Source: Podarcis vaucheri (taxonomy: Eukaryota). From it: DNA of 64,000 nt. Location: assembly GCA_965113315.1 (NCBI GenBank), contig OZ220370.1, one strand, 5' to 3'. Numbering within the stretch: position 1 is the first letter of the stretch; the number at the start of each line of letters is the position of its first letter. Shown here piece after piece: positions 1 through 61,011 of the stretch. The translations under genes and the position numbers were made by a program. The notes under the pieces were generated by a model. The model saw only the letters and a list, made by a program, of their open reading frames with translations. It was not told the DNA's origin and did no database searches.

Positions 1-265
1 AAACTTGTCTATATGCATCTGCATTCCCTCTGCTGCTTGTCTTGGAATAGGGCATTCTGACCGCCTGACATTTCTCAATTCTAAAAGAGCCAATTTGTGG
101 CCGGGATTTGACCTGCTGGGGCCACATCAGTTGACAATATTTCTTTAAAACTTCTTTACTTGGTCTGACCTCTCCTGGTTCTTCTGGAAAAACTATTTTA
201 AAATTTTCTAACATGCAGTCTAGGGGTGTACAGGCTTGAGTTGGTTTTGAGCATTTCCCCCCCAT
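1..265 (-). CDS. gag: Endogenous retrovirus gag, N-terminal matrix part (open frame running off the window edge; may be degenerate)
   Basis: Minus-strand ATG at 265 opens 88 stop-free codons: MGGKCSKPTQACTPLDCMLENFKIVF...KEVLKKYCQLMWPQ...RPQIGSF. It has an MGxxxS myristoylation motif and TPL-C-L-NF, L-xx-C-xxx-WP and GSF motifs typical of gamma-like (class I) matrix. It lies downstream of the PBS and splice donor. Confidence 0.75.
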   Translation of the reverse strand, partial: MGGKCSKPTQACTPLDCMLENFKIVFPEEPGEVRPSKEVLKKYCQLMWPQQVKSRPQIGSFRIEKCQAVRMPYSKTSSRGNADAYRQV

Positions 266-901
266 AGTTCTGCAAAAAACTTTCGCCAGACAAAACACTT
301 TCAGCTAGGCAGTTTCAAAAAATAGATCAAGGAAAAAAAACCACAGCACACTTCCTTTTTCAACTGAGATCTTACACATCCACCCGGCGTCCCGGGACTT
401 TCACACAGACACACACAGCCCTTTCTCCCCCCTTGCCTGCGGCAAACAACTTGGCAGAAAAGCACACACTTTCATACAGCGTTTTTCCCTTTTTTTTCAC
501 TCTCTCCCCCCCACAGCTGTTTTCCCCAATTTTCCTGCAGAACCTCTTCCTATCCTTGGTTGACTCAGCTTCTCCTCCCTCACCCTTTTGGTGATCCTTT
601 CCCTTTAACGGGAGGTTACTGGTGGGTCACCCCGAGTGTTGATCAGCACTCATTTTTTTTTCCTCAACTCACCGTGAGTTCCTGTCGTGGCGCGCCTTTC
701 CTTTTGGCTCCCCTTCAAATTCTCCTTTTTCGGTCCTTGCCTCCGTCTTGTCGGGAGTCCGCGCCGAAGGCGATTGCCCTCCTCCTTCGGAAATGATGTC
801 CGATCGGCGCCTGGAACGAAGCCAATAATCTCCGGGACGTCCTCCCCCCAAGAACCAGAGGCCGGCTCTTTTTGGGTAAAAAAACCCCACTGGCCTGTGT
901 G

Positions 902-919
902 ATCCGAGTCACGGCACCA
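902..919 (-). promoter_or_regulatory. Retroviral primer-binding site complementary to the tRNA-His 3' end
   Basis: The reverse complement of ATCCGAGTCACGGCACCA is TGGTGCCGTGACTCGGAT, the 18-nt tRNA-His PBS (as used by HERV-H). It sits 2 nt from the LTR-terminal CA. Confidence 0.9.
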
Positions 920-1839
920 AATGTTGCAAGGGATAAAGATCAGCCAGACGCAGCAATGGAGAATAAGAAGGTGAAGTTTATTGCCAGGCAATAAGGACCC
1001 AGTTGGAATCTCTTCCAAAGAACTGGGACCCCGATTGACAGAAATACAGGGGTCTTTATACCTGAGCAAATCACAGCAAATCATAGATCATAAGACAATC
1101 ATGAAGGATTCATAACTTGGTCAGCAAAATATCAGCCAATCAGCAAGCAGTTGTCACGCTCCTAGCTACTGGTATAGCACTGGTCCTGCACAGGGTTCAA
1201 GTTCCGCTTTCCAATGCTCCAGTGACGTTCAGTCTAACCTTTCCCCTAGTTATGACAGGACAGGGAGCTTGGACATTTTGTGGTTTTGCTCTTCCTGTTC
1301 TGTGGATTAATTTAGCCTGTTCCTGATGGGGAATTTGTACCAGAATCCCTGACTCATGTCTTGTCCGGGGTGCACAGATGTTTCTAGGGGAAAGGTCGGT
1401 TCCTAACTTTGCTGTTTCAAGCAGTTTGCATTTTAGCTAAGGCACAGCTTCCCTTTTGATTCAAGTGGATTTATAAAATACTGTAATCCTTGATTCGTGT
1501 AAGCATATATTGAATATATTGATTATTGATAACTGGTTATATGAATAATGTAGGGGTAGCCCTTCCTTCCTTGCCTCACTGCGGCCCCTGAAATTGCCTT
1601 GGGGGGTTGAGAGAACCCCCAGAACAGCATCGGGGAAGAGGGGGAGTCATTATGTCTGGCAAGCAGATATGCTGGGGCAGGTGGAATGTTTGTAATTGTG
1701 GCATGTTAAATTCTACTCAGTGTTTCTTATAGTGCGATCCTGAGCATGTCTACTCAGAACTAAGTCCCATTGGTCCAATGGGAATTACTCCCAGATGAGT
1801 GTGTATAGGATTGTAACCTTAGTTTTTTATACCTTAAGT

Positions 1840-2306: not shown

Positions 2307-2354
2307 AGCCAAAGCCTTAGTAGAAGAACAGCGCCTTTTGTTCCTAGGGTTCAG
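2307..2354 (+). CDS. RIMS2: RIMS2 48-nt alternative exon (SQSLSRRTAPFVPRVQ), phase 0-0, just before C2A
   Basis: ttttgcttaccag|AGC...CAG|gtaaag. The translation matches the recalled RIM2 insert SQSLSRRTTPFVPRVQ. Confidence 0.9.
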
Positions 2355-4846: not shown

Positions 4847-4977
4847 ATAAAACTGTGGTATGACAAGGTTGGTCACCAGTTGATAGTCACAATATTGGGT
4901 GCAAAGGATCTTCCTTCAAGGGAAGATGGGAGGCCGAGGAATCCCTATGTTAAGATTTACTTTCTTCCTGACAGAAG
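4847..4977 (+). CDS. RIMS2: RIMS2 exon, C2A domain part 1 (IKLWYDKVGHQLIVTILGAKDLPSREDGRPRNPYVKIYFLPDR)
   Basis: tttacag|ATA...GACAGAAG|gtagga, 131 nt, phase 0-2. TILGAKDLPSRED is RIM2-type rather than RIM1-type. Confidence 0.97.
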
Positions 4978-8205: not shown

Positions 8206-8377
8206 TGATAAGAACAAAAGAAGAACAAAAACAGTAAAGAAAACATTGGAGCCCAAATGGAACCAAACATTCATTTATTCTCCAGTTCATCGGAGAGAAT
8301 TTCGAGAACGAATGTTGGAAATTACTCTTTGGGACCAAGCACGAGTTCGTGAGGAAGAAAGTGAATTTTTAGGAGAG
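8206..8377 (+). CDS. RIMS2: RIMS2 exon, C2A domain part 2 (SDKNKRRTKTVKKTLEPKWNQTF...ESEFLGE)
   Basis: attacag|TGAT...GGAGAG|gtattc, 172 nt, phase 2-0. Visible inside ORF 8120..8395. Confidence 0.97.
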
Positions 8378-9382: not shown

Positions 9383-10998
9383 GTAGGTTTTCCGTTCTAT
9401 TAAAGGCATATTCATTTCTATGTGGAATAAAATGCATTTCTTCTAGGTAAGAAATGCATACAATGAAAAACCAGCATCTGTAAATACTGATCTTTTCTTG
9501 ACTTCAGTATTTTTACTGAACTTTATTGATGGAGAGTCATACTTATATTAAGAAACATCATGCTTGCCTCCTCTGGTTTCTTTTCCTTCTCATAGCCATA
9601 CAATCATGTATGAAAAATGTTGATATAATGCATTTTGTATATCATTCATTAGCCTTTGCAACAGCTAATATGCACTTCATAATGGTGAATATATATAATT
9701 TGAGGATTCATGCACAAACATCTGCAGGAGAATAGAATGCTTCAAATCATGATATGCTGAAATTTGATTACTAAACAGACAGTTAATCTACCTCTAATGC
9801 AACTTTCCTAAATGAGACTTCTGCTTCTATATGTGATTTCCTCACACACAAATTGAGCAGAATGAGGAGGTTTAATCCTTAAGTGATACAGTGAATTATA
9901 CTAACTCAGACTGCAGGGGTATGAGTCACATTTTTGAATCTGCACCCATATAAACAAAGTTCTGTGCAAAAATTACTCTTGACTGTTTACAAGTGTCCCC
10001 CCACTTTTTTTACATGGGGACCAATAATATGTGACCCTCACCTGCATATTTAATATGTTCTATTCTGCCATCTCAGGACTTTACAGTTCATTGACTAAAT
10101 TATTCTGTTGGATGTGTAGAAAAGGCAAAAACAAAAACAAACAAAAAAAACACCTAAAAAGCAACAAGAAAACTTGCAACTTCAAGGAGTTCAGTACAAA
10201 ACTAACCTGAGGCAGATTATACTTCACCTCCCAAAGCCTGATGAACAAGGCACATCTTCCTCCTAAAAGTATAATTTTGAGATGAGGTGCACCTCAGTAG
10301 ATAGGTAGTTTCAAAATGTTGGAATTGCTAAAGTATTAGACGTGGTATTGAGATGGAACCCCATGTTACAAGGCAGCAGCAACAAAATAGCAGTTGCTTG
10401 CAACAAACTGGAGAGGGTTTCATATGAAATCATAGAATTGTAGAGTTGGAAGGGATGTTGCATGTAAGTTTCCTAGAAACATCTGGCTGACCACTGTTGG
10501 AAACAGAATGCTAGACTAGCTGGATCTTTGGCCAAAGCAAAAGAATGATATACATTATTTCTTCTTCATATGTCCACATATTTTTTCTCTTATATGAAAT
10601 TGTTGTTTTTGGCGTGTTTTGTTAATTTGCATGTTTGAATGGTTTCTGCACAGGTTTATGACTATAATTTGTATTGTAATGCACGGATAAGTTATTTGAG
10701 GCTGCAATCCTATGCACACTTATTTGGGAAGAAATCACATTGAATTTGGGGAACTTTTGAGAAAACATGCACAGCATATACATAGGATTTGAACAGTAAA
10801 TCAGAAAGAATGTTAGAGGGCTGTTAAAGTAAAAACAAAACAAAACTGTGAAGATAGGTAGGATGAATAGAAAAAGAGGAAGCCCCCTCTCTGCTCTTGG
10901 TCAAAGAAGCAGACACAGATGTCCACAGGTTTTAATGAACTGTGTCAGCTGGGGAATGGACTCTGAAATCAACGTATCTAAAGGCTTTGCAACCTTTC

Positions 10999-18390: not shown

Positions 18391-20783
18391 TAAATTAAAC
18401 GTGGAAGAAGGAGGTGAACAAAATGATAATAGAGCTTTGAAATGTTTTCTTTCTCTCCCCCCCCCCCAATGCCTACTTTAAAATGTTGGAATATAGTTCA
18501 TGATTTTTTGCTATGCAGGAAACAATTGCTTCACCAAATTGCGCCTTATACAAGTGAGTGCTTGTCTGCTAGGCTATTTCCATGTTAATTCACTGCAGCT
18601 GTGTCAGATCCTTACCCACCTTACATTAGAGTACCCAGATTTAGCAGAAGCATTTGGGGCCCAGACAGGTTTGCAGAATTACATGTGGCAGGGAGAGACA
18701 GTGCTTGACTCTTTGCCTGACTCTTCAAAGCTTTATTTCCAGTTTGCAGTCCCATGGCAGGAGAAGTAGCTTGCGTGAGGCAATATGGAAAAGGGAAAGC
18801 AGTATTTCCTGCTACTTTTCTGCTCCAAATTGCCCCCTCCTAAAGCGCTTTTGTTTGTAATGTATCATTGGACTGGCAGTTTCCAAAATCAATTCTTAAC
18901 AGCTACTGAGAACCTATAAATTTAGTAAGACTGCTGTAAATCTGTGCCTTCTGCTAAAGGTAATGGATATGGTTACTGCCCTGCAAATAATTTTGCTGAT
19001 TCTTATGCCTTAGATGTATTAAGTTGCATTTTTACAGGCTGAAGCTCTCTTAAGGCTGTCTCATGCTTTTTCTGTCTTCCCTTGTCTCTGTAATAGCTCC
19101 CTGTATAATATAATCAGCACATTGAATGGGCATATTTTCAACCTCCCCCAGCCTTCCAGATTTTTAATTAAGATACTAAGTGTTAGCAGCGCTAATGGGC
19201 TCCCCCATGGAACGAGTGAAAATGCATTATGAGCATATTAGCTGTAACATACCACAAATTAGTATTTTCCAAGTGAGGGATCACTTTATTTTAAACCTGA
19301 TAAATGAAATTTTGAATTCACACTTTACTGTAACCTCCATGAATCCCCCCCCCCTATTTTTTATGGTGACTATTGAATGTTTAGTTTAATTGTCATAGTG
19401 GATACTGATGCAGAGGATATTAAATGATTCAAAATAAGTGAGACAGTACCTTTTATTGGAACAATCTCTTTTGGCAAAGGCTGATGTATGGGGCTAGGAA
19501 TGTCATGGAATGTTCAGTGGCATTTCAACTGTAGAGTTAATTAAACTTTTAACAGTACTGTACAATGTTCATGAACAACCCAGCTTTTATTTAAAAAGTG
19601 AAAGTTTGGTTGGGATTAAAACCACTCAGAATTATAGGTACAGGAAGAACTGTGTTTAAATATGCTGAGGACTGCAGAACTATATGGGGGAAGAGCAAGT
19701 GTAATAGGGAAATTATAGGACCAGTAGGCCTAAGTCATGGTGGTTAAGGAAGGGACAAATTATGCAAAGGGAGCCTGTGGAAAAGATAAAGAATGAGGGA
19801 AGGAGAAAATTATTTTAAAACTCAGACAGAACATAAGCACCAAAGCCACATGTTGTTGGCAAAAGTGGAGGAGATGCATATAGAAATTCCATTAGGGAAT
19901 ATTTTTGGGAGTCACTGTGGCTCAAGAAAACAGGGCAAAAGTCAGCAGTGGGCTGAACAAGGTTTTGTTTGTTTTTAAGAAAAGTTTGACATGGAGTTGA
20001 AATGAGAGCCAATAAAAATGCAGGGCTATGGAAAATCTTTGAACAGAATCATGGTGTAAAAAGCAGGACCCCTCAAATATCTGAATTGGGGCTTGGTCTG
20101 GAGTTAGGGATGAGGAGTGAGGTTGCCAAATTTGCTGACAGTAGCAGATTATTCAGGGTAATAAAAACAAAAGGGGGTTATTAAAAGCTCCAAAAGAATA
20201 TTCGCAAAGTTGGCGAATAGGCATTCAAAAAGCAAATGTAGTTCATTGAAAGTGTAAAGAGAAGCACATTGGGGCAAAAATTCCCAAAACATGGGGTTTG
20301 AGCTGGCAATGACTGGTGAGGAAAGAGACGTTGGGATTATGGGGGATAGCACAATTGACACCTCAACACCGTGAGTGGCAGCTGTGAAAAGGCGAGTTAG
20401 GGAGCAACGTATCAAAAGGTTTAAAAATAAAACTGCTAATATTGTTATGCCTTTATACGAGTCTATATTGTGACCATACTTGGAAAACTGAGATTGCTAC
20501 ATCTCAACAAGGATATTGTAGAGTTAGGAAAGGTGCAGAATCAAGGGGCTGGAGCAAGTCCTCTATAATAAATGTTATTCTATTTGTTTGCTTATTTAAG
20601 GCATTTACACCCTACCCTTTAGCCAAAAAGTCTTCCAGGGTGGCCACTCTCAGATTTACAAACTAAAAAGTTATGACACACAAGGAGCAGGAATGGGAGG
20701 GAGGCTGGGAAAAGCAAGGTCAAGAACAAGTTCTTACAACTTTTGAGAGATTTTAGTTTAGAAAAAACTAAAAGAAAAACTAA

Positions 20784-20917
20784 NNNNNNNNNNNNNNNNN
20801 NNNNNNNNNNNNNNNNNNNNNNNNNNNNNNNNNNNNNNNNNNNNNNNNNNNNNNNNNNNNNNNNNNNNNNNNNNNNNNNNNNNNNNNNNNNNNNNNNNNN
20901 NNNNNNNNNNNNNNNNN
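20784..20917. other. Assembly gap (134 N)
   Basis: Run of n bases. Confidence 1.
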
Positions 20918-21259
20918 GTAAAAGTACGGGCCAGTCTTGACAGACTCTAGGATTGTGCGCTCATCTCACTCTAGAGGCCGGGAGCCAGCGCTGTCTGCAG
21001 ACACTTCCGGGTCATGTAGCCAGCGTGACAAAGCTGCTCTGGCGAGCCAGAGCCGCACACGGAAACGCCGTTTACCTTCCCGCTGGTAAGCGGCCCCTAT
21101 TTATCTACCTGCACCCGGGGGTGCTTTCGAGCTGCTAGGTTGGCAGGCGCTGGGACCGAGCAGCGGGAGCACACCCCGCCACGGGGATTCGAATCGCTGA
21201 CCATGCGATCGGCAAGTCCTAGGCGCTGAGGTTTTACCCATAGCGCCACCCGCGTCCCC
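20918..21259 (-). mobile_element. Sauria SINE
   Basis: On the minus strand: head GGGACGCGGGTGGCGCTATGGGTAAAACC and B-box GATTCGAATCCC. Body shared with the 33751 and 56741 copies. CpGs are retained. Confidence 0.9.
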
Positions 21260-23586: not shown

Positions 23587-23722
23587 CAGAGTTTCCCAAA
23601 TTTGTGTCTCTAGCTATTTTTGGACTACAATTCCCATCATCACTGACCATTGGACCTGCTAGTTAGGGATGATGGGAGTTGAAGTCGAAAAACAGCTGGA
23701 GACCCAAGTTTGGGAAACCCTG
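23587..23722. mobile_element. Short palindromic hAT-type MITE
   Basis: TIRs CAGAGTTTCCCAAA / TTTGGGAAACCCTG. Internal hairpin shared with the 25785 copy. Confidence 0.75.
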
Positions 23723-25784: not shown

Positions 25785-25919
25785 CAGACACCCCCAAACT
25801 CGGCCCTCCAGATGTTTTGGGACTACAATTCCTATCATCCCTGACCACTGGTCCTGTTAGCTAGGGATGATGGGAGTTGTAGTCCCAAAACATCTGGAGG
25901 CCGTGTTTGGGGATGCCTG
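25785..25919. mobile_element. Short palindromic hAT-type MITE
   Basis: Near-perfect fold-back with CAG...CTG ends and an exact 8-bp TSD CTCTAGCT (25777-25784, 25920-25927). Confidence 0.9.
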
Positions 25920-33750: not shown

Positions 33751-34275
33751 AGGTAAAAGGTAAAGATAAAGGACCTGGATGGTTAAGTCCAGTCAAAGGC
33801 GACTATGGAGTTGTGGCACTCAGTGGCGTAGCGTGGGTTGTCAGCACCCGGGGCAAGACAAGTAATTTGCGCCCCCTAACCCGTGGGTTTTAGTAGGGGC
33901 AGAGAGCTGCGAGTGTGAGCACGCCCCCCCAGATGTTGCGCCCGGTGCGGCCGGCCCCCCCTGCACCCCCCACGCTACGCCACTGGTGGCACTCATCTCA
34001 CTTTCAGGCTGAGGGAGCAGGTGTTTGTCCACAGATAGTTTTCTGGGCCATGTGGCCAGCATGACTAAACCGCTACTGGTGCACAGAGGACCGTGATGAG
34101 TGCCAGAGTGCACGGAAATGCCGTTTACATTCCCACCATGGTGGTACCTATTTATCTACTTGCACTGGCGTGCTTTCAAACTGCTAGGTTGGCAGGAGCT
34201 GGAACAGAGCAACGGGAGCTCACCCCGTCGCAGGGATTTGAACTGCCAACCTTCCAATCAGCAAGCCTAAGAGGT
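33751..34275 (-). mobile_element. Sauria SINE interrupted by a hAT MITE
   Basis: The (ACCTTT)-type tail reads as ggtaaaaggtaaag. The body is collinear with the 56741 copy once 33821-33993 is removed. Confidence 0.88.
33821..33985. mobile_element. Young 165-bp hAT MITE
   Basis: Perfect 17-bp TIR CAGTGGCGTAGCGTGGG and exact 8-bp TSD GTGGCACT (33813-33820, 33986-33993). Confidence 0.95.
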
Positions 34276-34409
34276 TCAGTACATAGAATTAAGCTCCCCC
34301 ATATTTCTAGGGTTTACAGATGTCAAATGCTTGCACTGGGGCAATAGAGGAAGATTATCACAGTGCAGCATAGCAAAGTTATAAATTGTTCCTCTAGGTG
34401 ATAAAAATA

Positions 34410-34751
34410 CAGTGGTGCCTCGCAAGACGAAAATAATCCGTTCTGTGATTCTCTTCGTCTAGTGGTTTTTTTGTTTTGCGAAGCAAGCCCATTGACGGAT
34501 TAGAGGATTAGCGCTATTAGCGCTATTAGTGGCTTTTAGCGGCTTATCAGCTTATCGGATCAGCTGATAAGCGGCTTAGCGGCTTAGAAAAAGGGGGGGA
34601 GGGGAAAAACCCGCAGGAACTCGCAAGACATTTTCGTCTTGCGAAGCAAGCCCATAGGAGATTCGTTTTGCGAAGCACCTCCAAAACGGAAAACTCTTTC
34701 GTCTAGCAAGTTTTCCATCTTGCGAGGCATTCGTCTTGCGGGGCACCACTG
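34410..34751. mobile_element. Tc1/mariner (pogo/Tigger-like) MITE
   Basis: TIRs CAGTGGTGCCTCGCAAGACGAA / TTCGTCTTGCGGGGCACCACTG with TA TSDs and internal TTCGTCTTGCGA repeats. Confidence 0.92.
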
Positions 34752-34965
34752 TACCATTAACATTTCCTTCAGAGTTTTTCGGTATTCTTTGCATTTTTTC
34801 CATGCTTTTGTCATGTTTATAGAATTATACTGATTAGAGACTATGATTTTGTAGCTGCTGTGTTGTCATGTCGTTTGTCCTTCAGTTTCCTTTTTAGGAT
34901 GTGTGTTCATCAGTCTTCATTTCATTGTCTTACATTTTCATTTTTTGTTTCTGCTATGCTTTCAG

Positions 34966-35649: not shown

Positions 35650-35990
35650 GCTGGTGTAGTGTGTTATCTAAACGGGTGAGCTGTGACCCAGGGAAGACCT
35701 AGTTGCTGGTGTAGTGTGTTATCTAAACGGGTGAGCTGTGACCCAGGGAAGACCTAGTTGGAATCTCATCTGAGCTATGAACTCTGTTGGTAGCTTTACA
35801 TGCACATCTGTCTCTTCGCTCCAGTGCTTCCAGCTGTAGTTTGGGGCTAATAATGCTACCCACCTTACATAATAATTGTAAGGATTATTGCAATATGGTA
35901 CATGTGAAGTCCTTTCAGCTCTCAAAACTACAGTACTATATAAATGTTGTGTACTGTTATTGCTGTTGTTATTATTATTATTCTTAATTA
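35650..35990 (+). mobile_element. tRNA-derived CORE/MIR-like SINE with a tandemly duplicated 55-bp head
   Basis: 35650-35704 equals 35705-35759 exactly. A-box-like TGGTGTAGTG, B-box-like GTTGGAATCTC, core-like AATAATG..CCTTACATAATAATTGTAAGGATT and a (TTA)n tail. Confidence 0.65.
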
Positions 35991-39059: not shown

Positions 39060-41620
39060 TTATTGAATTCCCTGGGAGTCATGGTAGCTGAGAGGCTATG
39101 ATGGAGATGGATCCTGATCCTCAGATAGATGAAATCTTGAAAAGGATCATATAAGACTTCCCTAAATGATGTGGCTCTGAAGACAACTTCCAAAATCCCT
39201 CAGTAAAAGAGGTTGTGGAAACTGCCAGTATTATATCCAGCAGAATTAATTCCTGAAAGAAAATATTTGATACCATTTAGGTTTCACTTAGAGAGCTGGA
39301 TAAAAGTAGACTGCTAAACTGCTTTCAAATCCATTGAAACAAATACCTGGACATTAAGGATGTGCCTTGGATACCTGGGCCCAGTATTGTTATCCTTTCC
39401 TCTATCTCAGAAGGGAAGAACAAGAGTTGTTTTTTAGCAAAGATCAGGCTCCATGGAATCTTCTTTCCAGTAACAAAGGGATTCCAGAGATAGCTTAAAT
39501 ATTTCCCCCCCAAAAAATGTGCCCACCTTGTAAAGCAGATTGCTTTTTACAGAACATCCCTGGTAGGTAAGAGTGATGGAATGTAGTGGTTGCAGATGAT
39601 TTACGTTTCAGTACACCCTTGCATTCTGCATACTTCAGCAGTGGCATTTGCATTGGAGGTCCTGCTGGTTGTTTAGTGACTCAGGAACTAACTACTGCCA
39701 AACCAGTCTTGAGCATTCCACATCCAGAAAATTGAAGATAATTTATCAGTTTTAGGAAGATGGATGTTGTTTTGTGGTCACATAATTACCATATTGTTGA
39801 CAATTTGCTAGGCAGAAAAACGAAAAAAATGAGCAAACTCCTCACAGCTCAGCTCAATAAATCAAGACAATGCAAGATCAAACAGTGGTTCTGCTTTAAG
39901 TTTGTTTTCTAATTAGGCTTATGCAAACCAATTCCCCAAGTTTGACTGTAATAGCTAACTATGGTTTCTTAAAAAGTGAAAACAGAAAATTTATATCTCT
40001 TTGTGACCACAAAAGTGGGGGAAGAAAGAGTACGCAAGCTTGAGGCTCACCATAGCTTGTTAAGATAGAAGGACAGCAGCATCTGAATGGGACTATGATC
40101 ATTCAATAACTTTTCACTATCTCCTAATCTTTCCTGGCATATGGTTAGATCACTCAGGGCAGATATGGGGCTTGTGCCGTTTGGTTCCTTTGATTTTCTA
40201 ATGGAACTTCAAGTTAAGTATTACATTACCTAGAGTACAGGGTTGTTGTCAAAAACATTAGATGCATGTTTTATATGACTTTCCCCCCTCCTTAACATCT
40301 ACCGTAGTTCTCTGTTATGGCCTCTGTATAGTTCCACAGATGGGATCTGTAGCTCTGCAGGCCGTTCATTGAGGATTTGGCATCTGTGGCACTCAAACTA
40401 CTGTGATAAATGTTTGAAGATGTGAGAATAAGGTAGCCCAGACCAAGCAGCTCAGATATCCATGCCACCATTGGATCTGAAGGTCTCAGATCTGATAAAC
40501 CAACAAGAAGAATTACCGTTTCATTGTGAGATTTGGCTGATTCAGGCTTCATATACATGACAGTGTATATGCAGCTGCAGACATATGGGGGGAGGTTTAT
40601 AGAGTATAAACATCTACTAGCCAGGTTGTCTCTTCCCAAAGATGCATCAACTTGCATACAGCAACAAGGAGGGAGCAGAGGTGACACTGGGCACTTCAGA
40701 TATCCAGCAGTGCCTATTTTGCCACTAAAAATAGGACTACATGGGGAAATGATGCTACAGTGGTGCCTCGCAAGACGAAATTAATTGGTTCTGCGAGTTT
40801 TTTCGTGTAGCGAATTTTTCGTCTTGCGAAGCACGGTGTCGGAAAAGTTTTGGAAAAGCTTCAAAAATCACCAAAAACCTCAAAAAAGGCTACCACACCG
40901 CATTCTATGAGTTGCTCCTCAAAGTCAAGTCGCAACTGTATTAACAGTGTTAAGAAAAAGGAAACAAACTTGCAAGACGTTTTCGTCTTGCGAAGCAAGC
41001 CCATAGGGAAATTCGTCTTGCGAAGCAGCTCAAAAACCGCAAAACCCTTTCGTCTAGCGAGTTTTTCGTCTTGCGAGGCCTTCGTCTTGCGGGGCACCAC
41101 TGTATTCACATCAATTTTTGCTGGAGATAAGCCCCTCTGACCATTGAAGGGCCTCCCCACCGCCAGTGGAAATTGATGCAAATAGCATGTTTTTCTGCTG
41201 GGGATGTAGTCCCCATTCCTATGGGAATAGATGCTTTACCAGGAATCTGAAAGACCCATGGCTTTTCCAACATGATAGGTAAGCTCAACATTGATCAAGG
41301 GCTCAACATTGTGTTGGACCATTTGATTCTTACCATTGGGTGCATTAATTATGCAAAACAATTTCTGCTCATTCTACCCCTACCTGCTTATTTCTAAGCA
41401 GACCTCTCTACAAACAGCTAAGCATACAGAGGATTTGAACATATTTTGACCTGGCAGAAAAATGCATTAGTTGACAATTTGGGAAGGAGCACCTTACTCT
41501 CTAAAAAGTCTAGAAGTTTCTATGAACTGGCTTATCCAGATGGAAATCCTATATGAATGAATTTACAGGCAGCTACTCAGAGAACAGCAGTTACGGGTAA
41601 ATGTAACTCTGTTTTGTACT
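39060..41620 (+). mobile_element. Possible highly degraded DIRS-like retrotransposon remnant (host of the 40758 MITE)
   Basis: Ends in GAGAACAGCAGTTACGGGTAAATGTAAC, which resembles DIRS termini. A similar motif is at ~45345-45390. No intact ORF, and the boundaries are uncertain. Confidence 0.3.
40758..41102. mobile_element. Tc1/mariner (pogo/Tigger-like) MITE, same TIR family as 34410-34751
   Basis: TIRs CAGTGGTGCCTCGCAAGACGAA / TTCGTCTTGCGGGGCACCACTG with TA TSDs. Confidence 0.92.
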
Positions 41621-56740: not shown

Positions 56741-57093
56741 TAAAAGATAAAGGGACCCCGACCGTTAAGTCCAGTCATGGACGACTCTGGGGTCGCGGTG
56801 CTCATCTCGCTTTACTGGCCGAGGGAGACGGCGTTTGTCTGCAGACAGCTGTGACCAGCATGACTAAGCCGCTTCTGGCGAACCAGAGCAGCACAGGGAA
56901 ACACCGTTTACCTTCCTGCTGTAGCGGTACCTATTTATCTACTTGCACTTTGATGTGCTTTCAAACTGCTAGGTTGGCAGGAGCAGGGACCGAGCAATGG
57001 GAGCGTACCCTGTTGCGGGGATTTGAACCGCCGACCTTTTGATCAGCAAGCCCTGGGCTCTGTGGTTTAGACCACAGCGCCACCCGCATCCCA
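56741..57093 (-). mobile_element. Full-length Sauria SINE
   Basis: Flanked by a 13-bp TSD TGATACTTCCCTT (56728-56740, 57094-57106). tRNA-like head on the minus strand with B-box GGTTCAAATCC. Confidence 0.93.
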
Positions 57094-57531: not shown

Positions 57532-57592
57532 CTTCTGTCGCCTTTGACTGGACTTAACCATCCAGGGGTCCTTTACCTTTTACCTTTACCTT
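57532..57592 (+). mobile_element. 5'-truncated Sauria SINE tail
   Basis: GTCGCCTTTGACTGGACTTAACCATCCAGGGGTCCTTTACCTTTTACCTTTACC is nearly the reverse complement of 33752-33803. Confidence 0.8.
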
Positions 57593-59071: not shown

Positions 59072-59339
59072 GTATGAGCGCATTGTTACAAGAATATAAA
59101 CACAGGTGCAAATCTATTATGCTATCTATACAGAAGAAAGCAATGTTGAATTTTCCTTGTTGAGTTTATTTAAAGTGTGCAAGCAAAATAAAACCTAGTT
59201 AATCTAATCAAAACAATAAATGCAAATTATAGTGTTAAGGAATTAATGTGCCAAATCATTTATTTATTTGGCTTTTTTGCTTACAATATTTATATGTTGC
59301 CTTTCTGCCAATGCACTCACAGCTGCTTACAGTTTAAAA

Positions 59340-59478
59340 CAGTGATAGCCAAACTTGGCCCTCCAGCTGTTTTTGGACTACAACAACTCCCCTCATCCCT
59401 AGCTAACAGGACCAGTGGTCAGGGATGATGGGAACTGTAGTCCCCAAACAGCTGGAGAGCCAAGTTTGGCCATCACAG
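59340..59478. mobile_element. Short palindromic hAT-type MITE
   Basis: Fold-back structure with an exact 8-bp TSD GTTTAAAA (59332-59339, 59479-59486). Confidence 0.88.
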
Positions 59479-61011
59479 GTTTAAAATAATGGCAAACACT
59501 CTAATGGATAAAAGTACAAAATGGAAAAAGAGATAGGAAGAGAAGAGGAAAATAAACTGTATGGGTACAAACACACTAATGGAGCAAATCCACTGCCCCT
59601 GCCAGTGTGTTTCCACTACCCCACCATGTGCTTTGCCCCTCCCCCTCCCTCATCTGATAAGCAGCTGCAGGAGGTCAGTTAAGCATCTCCGCAATACCAT
59701 GCCATACACTACTGTTTCTTTCAGCTTGGAAGAGAAGAGAGGCAGATGAAAGAGATGAGGAAACTTATGTCTTGTTTTGTTTTCAAAAGAGTTGGTTTGC
59801 CTAACAATCATTATAGCAACAGACCTTTCTTCTTGTTGGCACTTCCATTCACGAAGTCCTAAATTTAAGAGGTAGTTTACACATAGGGAAGTTTATTCCT
59901 CCTTCACTGCTATCTAAGTATCACAGTTTATCTGCAAGTACAGTATGTGCAATCCAGTGCACATTTACTTTGTGTAAATCTATTGAATTGAATGGAATTT
60001 TCTTTTGAGTAGAAATGCATAGTATAGCACCTTGGAACACTAAAACGTCTGAGAACAGGGTTCTGGACTAGGTGGGCCATTGGCCTGATCCAGAAAGCTA
60101 TTTTTGTGTTCTTAAACCAATTTTTGGTGAATGGGTATATCAAGACTGTAAGCCAAGCAGTTAAATAGATCCTTTATGTTCAGAGCCAGTAAATCTCTGA
60201 GCCACAGACAGTGGTGACACACAGCGCGAAGCCTATAATCTTCATGACTTCTTGTGAGCTTCCAGAGCCTTCAGAGTAGCCACTTTTGAAAACTTGGATC
60301 TGATCTAACAAGGCAGTTTGTAATTTGTTAGCTGGCAGTAAAACCAGCAAGGAATTCCAAAATGTGCATTATATTATATATTATATTTTCTACCTATTTT
60401 GGGACATACTGGTTAGTTTGAATTGGGGATGGGGGGAGAACACCATTATAAATAACTAATCCTACAATCCTAAACACATTTATCTGGGAGTAAGCCCCAC
60501 AATGGGACTTATTTATGGGTAAATATGCATAGGCTTTTGCTATAAGCAAGCATAAATAATTAAGCCAAATATAAATGAGTCTACTGCTACTAAGTCAACA
60601 TTTGTGTTACTGAAATAATTTTTATACCCCCCATTTTTACCCCTGACAACACCCCTTCCTTTGTTGCCTCCCTTATGTCAAATTTTAGATCGTAAGATCC
60701 TTCGTGCAGGGGCCTAAAAATAAAGAGTCATGTAAATTAATAGCACTAAAATAAACATACAAATAAAACTGCTGTTTTTAAGAATTATATTGGCTATATA
60801 TTATATTAGCTTTTTTGTAGTAGGAAGCTCTAAACCTAAACATACTTTAATTCTTGTAAAATACTACATGGTCAATGAAGAAAAAACAGAACCTAGTTCT
60901 GGCCCTACCAGTGATTGTACTTTAGACTGAACCTCATCAAATGATGTTAGGTATCTTACAGAAGTTAATTAATGTTTCTGACAAGCTCTGATTTCTTTTG
61001 GTTTACGCTAG

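Follow-up and report, generated by a model that had tools for sequence, protein, structure and literature searches.

A probable tRNA-His-primed, gamma-like endogenous retrovirus lying antisense in a RIMS2 intron of the lizard Podarcis vaucheri

Among 532 canonical HERV-H chains, 386 carry a primer-binding site (PBS) for tRNA-His, 57 for tRNA-Phe and 19 for tRNA-Lys, according to the sections consulted of PMC4724089. Unrelated endogenous retroviruses (ERVs) may share one PBS (PMC8922424, in part), and two ERV-V-like human relics are also described as His-primed in the available portion of PMC11905727. PBS type is unstable and His occurs outside HERV-H, indicating that the PBS is no proof of HERV-H kinship; the claim of the first-pass annotation that tRNA-His priming defines HERV-H did not hold. 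Gamma-related ERVs have already been recorded in reptiles, as excerpts of PMC8922424 and PMC4299795 state. The leaders and primers of reptile ERVs seem thinly described. The main text of PMC4299795, in the version consulted, has 0 mentions of PBS or tRNA, and the accessible main text of an Anura preprint (10.1101/2024.07.05.601823) is without PBS data. Our literature search found no description of a His-primed lizard ERV, a weak negative in that the search covered chiefly open-access papers and their main texts.

Here we describe an element at the left edge of a 64,000-nt stretch of Podarcis vaucheri DNA (contig OZ220370.1, assembly GCA_965113315.1), the whole of which we call the window. We put the probability that this element is the 5' end of a class I, gamma-like provirus at about 0.9, and hold with almost the same confidence that its germ-line entry was fairly recent and that it is probably now carried as a passenger. 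Along the minus strand the features follow the order LTR signals, CA, PBS, splice donor, GACG hairpin and ATG:

1448..1457, minus strand: PPT-like run of purines adjoining the proposed LTR start on its outer side
922..1446, minus strand: LTR (U3-R-U5), inner end firm (CA at 923-922), outer end at 1446 proposed
1136..1140, minus strand: inverted CCAAT-like box, some 80 nt upstream of the TATA box, role putative
1055..1060, minus strand: TATAAA, read directly from the sequence
993..1032, minus strand: predicted R-region hairpin (-19.5 kcal/mol, z -2.5; 2 of 200 shuffles equally stable)
977..982, minus strand: AATAAA polyadenylation signal, likewise read directly
902..919, minus strand: tRNA-His PBS of 18 nt, exact match, 2 nt after the LTR CA
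601..900, minus strand: CpG-rich, PBS-proximal leader, 21 CpGs counted
696-689, minus strand: palindrome GGCGCGCC within the CpG-rich leader, a possible dimer site
666..680, minus strand: near-palindromic hairpin with donor-like ACG/GTGAGT, GT at 672-671
383..396, minus strand: candidate GACG-loop hairpin with a five-pair stem, of the gammaretroviral packaging type, in single copy (44 of 2000 leader shuffles yield one)
2..265, minus strand: gag matrix start, part of the matrix region, 88 open codons from the ATG at 265 to the window edge

The PBS is the firmest of these features. It is complementary at 18 of 18 positions to the 3' end of tRNA-His(GUG), as the first-pass annotation had reported, and it is unique: no second match occurs across the 64-kb window, even when up to 3 mismatches are allowed (shuffle mean 0.01). 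The CA at 923-922 is followed by a two-nucleotide TT spacer and then by the PBS at 919-902, so that the locus has the class I arrangement of an LTR with terminal CA followed by an 18-nt tRNA PBS. The same 18 nt are identical to a published HERV-H PBS-tRNA-His primer (PMC3253121, consulted in part) and to the first 18 nt of a reverse primer for human His-GTG-1-1 (PMC12217144, likewise). The 19th base of the site diverges from the tRNA, which fits a PBS better than a tRNA copy. The pattern CA-NN-PBS had 0 matches in viral and metagenome contigs, and pattern and protein scans of such contigs for related loci gave 14 and 148 pattern matches, with 0 confirmed.

The assignment to a gamma-like lineage draws on the open frame as well as on the LTR-PBS layout. 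All 88 codons from the ATG at 265 to the window edge are open, and the "open Gag" of the earlier reading applies to these codons alone. Within the window, 23 of 2682 ATGs open at least 88 codons. The frame begins with Gly2 and Ser6, which we take to be a myristoylation-type motif, and any in-frame upstream extension of the glyco-Gag type is limited by a stop lying 13 codons ahead of the ATG. Searched against 1.84 billion representative proteins, the ORF had two matches (E 1.2e-8 and 7e-4, residues 6-71), and BLASTP identity was 44% over 64 residues to P0001 and 34% over 77 residues to P0002. Both relatives carry Pfam Gag_MA, one at E 0.0037, which falls short of the curated threshold of Pfam, the other at 1.2e-13; a further relative, 81% identical to P0002, has Gag_MA and the start of Gag_p30. 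A profile built from the ORF, P0001 and P0002 found exactly two PDB entries at E<=1: 1uhu (4.5e-7) and MLV core protein p15, 1mn8 (1.8e-6). Gag_MA is thus reached indirectly, via relatives and profile, direct scans being negative: the ORF alone had no match in Pfam or the Atlas and no Gag match among PDB sequences. An Atlas search with P0002 led to clusters of retroviral matrix proteins from mixed families, most of them Gag_p17, which supports "matrix" and says nothing for the genus. The structure model of the ORF had a pLDDT of 49, its fold searches returned nothing at E<=0.001, and a search for longer homologues found none. On sequence comparison with the two relatives and the profile, the ORF is assigned as a gammaretroviral-type matrix start.

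A frame break after about codon 70 was considered and found unsupported, since against P0002 the final 72 nt scored no better than shuffles in any frame (P 0.25-0.52). The BLASTP alignment stays ungapped as far as residue 85 of the open frame, and the predicted reading frame of the last 19 codons is weakly supported.

These data also bear on two other lineages. The locus could be a true reptile relative of the HERV-H/F lineage, with which it shares an identical His PBS and a CpG-rich leader, but PBS type is no lineage marker and the matrix relatives connect to MLV-type p15, making such kinship very unlikely; a tRNA-His PBS is what HERV-H and the HERVHF supergroup would have, yet it is not diagnostic. 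To our eye, and by assumption, the N-terminal pattern of the ORF is closer in look to HERV-E/REV-type Gag; the REV Gag row aligned at 34% over 55 columns with E 9, which is not significant. The searches yielded no labelled HERV Gag sequence with which the matrix could be compared. An epsilon-like ERV or a non-retroviral LTR retrotransposon has in its favor that walleye epsilonretroviruses are primed by tRNA-His and that the ORF has no direct family match. Our literature search found no paper showing tRNA-His priming in those viruses, and Gag_MA and Gag_p30 in the ORF relatives, together with the profile match to MLV p15, render this reading scarcely probable. The PBS, the Gag_MA of the relatives and the profile match to MLV p15 bear out the earlier description of a class I, gamma-like, His-primed ERV with a Gag matrix start.

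Upstream of the PBS, the TATAAA (1060-1055) and AATAAA (982-977) stand in LTR order on the minus strand, as the first-pass annotation had noted, and they flank the predicted hairpin at 1032-993. A TATAAA and AATAAA pair 60-100 nt apart recurs five times elsewhere in the window, so that the pair alone is weak and counts in its context. A 144-codon minus-strand ORF at 1084-650 was taken to be a chance frame (best family E 0.54, not credible). Whereas the inner LTR end is firm, the outer end is proposed. When 60 TG sites are ranked by how well they mirror the CA end as inverted repeats, the TG at 1446 falls outside the best 12, and it is one of four with at least 11 purines in the 14 nt upstream; 1444 is another, sharing the same run. 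Instead, the provirus could be tandem or rearranged, with this LTR internal to it, or the LTR could have its outer end at some position other than 1446. The PPT-like run directly before TG 1446 and the poor inverted repeat of that TG are consistent with this, but purine runs are common, and the gap between 1446 and an unrelated interspersed repeat (1723-1831) spans only about 270 nt and contained no env-like frame; we regard this reading as unlikely. The repeat, which has 74-80% matches near 10700, 53900 and 60500, lies outside the LTR and limits how far the ERV extends beyond it. The target-site duplication of ERV1 elements is 4 bp, according to part of PMC4299795. No target-site duplication, second LTR, pol or env was found within the window, and 2401-64000 holds no second LTR or further ERV copy.

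The leader has 27 CpGs (observed/expected 0.71), more than any of 98 background bins of the same length (on average 5, at most 23), and 21 of the 27 fall in 601-900. The LTR and PBS together have 9 (observed/expected 0.32) and gag has 2 (0.17), against a background ratio of 0.21. The CpG retention noted in the first-pass annotation holds for about 300 nt of leader, and the LTR and gag are near background. The proposed leader donor, ACG/GTGAGT, is present at 675-667 on the minus strand, and the segment 1035-660 containing it folds with z -2.65 relative to shuffles. Downstream, the GACG-loop hairpin is absent from the minimum-energy fold of 700-260 and present in the centroid; shuffles of this 441-nt segment fold just as stably (z 0.12). 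GACG-loop motifs have been linked to packaging in alpha- and gammaretroviruses (PMC516450, in the part consulted). Since it occurs once, in a segment whose fold does not outdo shuffles, the hairpin adds modest support. An Rfam search gave no match.

If the element worked as its layout suggests, the LTR would start RNA about 25-30 nt past TATAAA, at the R hairpin, and host tRNA-His annealed to the PBS would prime reverse transcription. The leader donor would splice to an env acceptor outside the window, the GACG hairpin and palindromes might serve dimerization and packaging, and a presumably myristoylated Gag would be translated from 265.

We asked how much decay the element could have undergone. 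In a simulation that is rough in that its rates were assumed, 26% of trials still had the exact PBS and 69 open codons after 2% divergence; the share fell to 3.4% at 5% divergence and to 0.13% at 10%. Decay of a few per cent is thus favored and "young" is plausible, an age argument that is biased because the element was noticed for its perfect PBS. The same kind of element could be an older insertion, fixed before related species split. Of 24 runs listed, 20 contain part of 1-2400, spanning 11 studies and 8 coded organisms. Among 14 run rows with larger shares, 8 (5 coded organisms, 3 studies) exceed 0.40 of the words of 1-2400, the maximum that the 954-nt non-ERV flank within that segment could supply, suggesting that ERV sequence is probably present in several species. 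The low CpG ratio of the LTR (0.32) is also in keeping with greater age. However, other copies of the family, and not this site, may be the source of the shared words, and an intact PBS and frame are unlikely past about 5-7% decay. We consider the older insertion somewhat unlikely, and favor the fairly recent entry.

On the plus strand, the window holds exons of the host gene:

2307-2354, plus strand: 48-nt in-frame exon bounded by AG and GT, just before the C2A exons and 861 nt from 1446; we take it to be a RIMS2 exon
4847-4977, plus strand: RIMS2 C2A exon, matching RIM2 chains 2bwq and 1v27
8206-8377, plus strand: RIMS2 C2A exon, matching the same chains

The C2A exons match RIM2 chains 2bwq and 1v27 (55 of 55 residues identical in one search, E 3e-23 in another); being on the plus strand, they place the ERV antisense in a RIMS2 intron, as had been proposed. 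At 4856-4861 the lizard C2A reads W-Y and the mammalian RIM2 chains W-F. In chains 2bwq and 1v27 Leu-Ser directly precedes IKLW, that is, the 48-nt exon is missing, which points to mammalian isoforms that skip it; judged from these sequences, the exon at 2307-2354 is probably used alternatively. A neuron-specific RIMS2 micro-exon is mentioned in PMC7273530, whose text, in the part consulted, does not state whether it is the same exon. The first-pass annotation had placed the LTR less than 1 kb from a regulated RIMS2 exon. The distance stands, at 861 nt to the proposed LTR end.

Lying antisense, the element would not place its AATAAA or its donor in the RIMS2 pre-mRNA, and the intron would mostly splice out normally. 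Read in the host sense, 1-1500 has neither AATAAA nor ATTAAA, which agrees with the tendency of human intronic ERVs to lie antisense, the common survivor state (PMC1794541, consulted in part). In chicken, 77% of intronic proviruses are reported in sense (PMC3482500, also in part), and antisense bias is therefore not universal: the generalization that intronic ERVs are mostly antisense agrees with the human data and not with those from chicken.

The ERV could nevertheless alter RIMS2, either through a host-sense, frame-breaking cryptic exon arising from the leader or through an LTR acting on the nearby 48-nt exon. One further feature is relevant:

482..516, plus strand: host-sense pyrimidine tract ending in CAG, a putative acceptor; a second, weaker one lies at 540

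From an acceptor at 516 or 540 to the host-sense GTGAGT at 674, which derives from the donor hairpin, a candidate exon would span 157 or 133 nt, neither a multiple of 3 and hence frame-breaking. The tract at 516, which arises from the purine-rich viral leader, has pyrimidines at 22 of 23 positions; among the 621 clean YAG sites of the window, it and one other reach this level, although a pyrimidine count is a crude acceptor score. The candidate donor at 674 is without G at -1. Antisense HERV-E and HERV-H splice sites are used in human, whereas young antisense HERV9 and HERV-K are unspliced in human mRNAs (both from portions of PMC1794541). The weak donor and these unspliced young elements led us to rate an effect on RIMS2 as highly improbable. 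Of the runs sharing sequence with 1-2400 none is recorded as RNA; six are guessed to be RNA, with shares of 0.08-0.10 that have no evidence value. Still more doubtful is the fullest version, in which an undescribed, recently active, His-primed gamma-like lizard ERV would be polymorphic here and its cryptic exon (517 or 541 to 673) would lower or reshape the RIMS2 output of carriers beside the alternative exon. Were the site polymorphic and RIMS2 splicing changed, it would allow the action of an ERV on a presynaptic gene to be tested in nature. The passenger reading is the one we retain.

The window also contains other repeats and features. At 35650-35759, in a RIMS2 intron, a perfect 55-nt head-to-tail duplication may be recent or an assembly artefact, and a run of N at about 20780-20920 (134 N in the window) is an assembly gap adjoining an interspersed repeat. 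Related elements at 34399-34762 and 40756-41113 have terminal inverted repeats, are 83-90% alike in parts and are CpG-rich; we take them to be mariner/Tc1-like and presumably to resemble lacertid mariner-like elements. Three copies of a CpG-rich, SINE-like repeat (21038-21258, 33768-34307 and 56750-57092) presumably resemble Sauria/Squam1 SINEs. Within the sequence itself, these SINE-like and mariner-like repeats are what would point to a lizard host. There is a perfect inverted 30-nt match between 33774-33803 and 57537-57566, and short, non-autonomous, MITE-like elements with internal inverted repeats lie at 23587-23722, 25785-25913 and 59333-59485.

Compared with known systems, the element resembles MLV and the gammaretroviruses (PF01140; 1mn8, 1uhu) in the N-terminus of its matrix, its LTR order, its leader donor, its candidate GACG-loop hairpin and its long leader before gag. 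It differs from them in its primer, tRNA-His here and tRNA-Pro in MLV, in having one GACG hairpin instead of a pair, and in matching no Pfam or PDB entry directly. With HERV-H (HERVHF supergroup) it shares the 18-nt His PBS and class I membership; HERV-H, however, is a primate family, and the evidence of sequence kinship ends at the PBS. The proteins P0001, P0002 (Logan) and P0003 (ENA) all carry Gag_MA, but they are distant singletons that do not belong to the same family at the DNA level. By description, in the parts of the sources consulted, the element is like the ERV-V-like human relics in being primed by tRNA-His outside HERV-H (PMC11905727) and like reptile ERV1 elements such as CrocERV5 in being a gamma-related ERV of a reptile (PMC4299795). 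It thus adds one probable, His-primed gamma-like family to the ERVs of reptiles, and a further case in which primer type does not track lineage.
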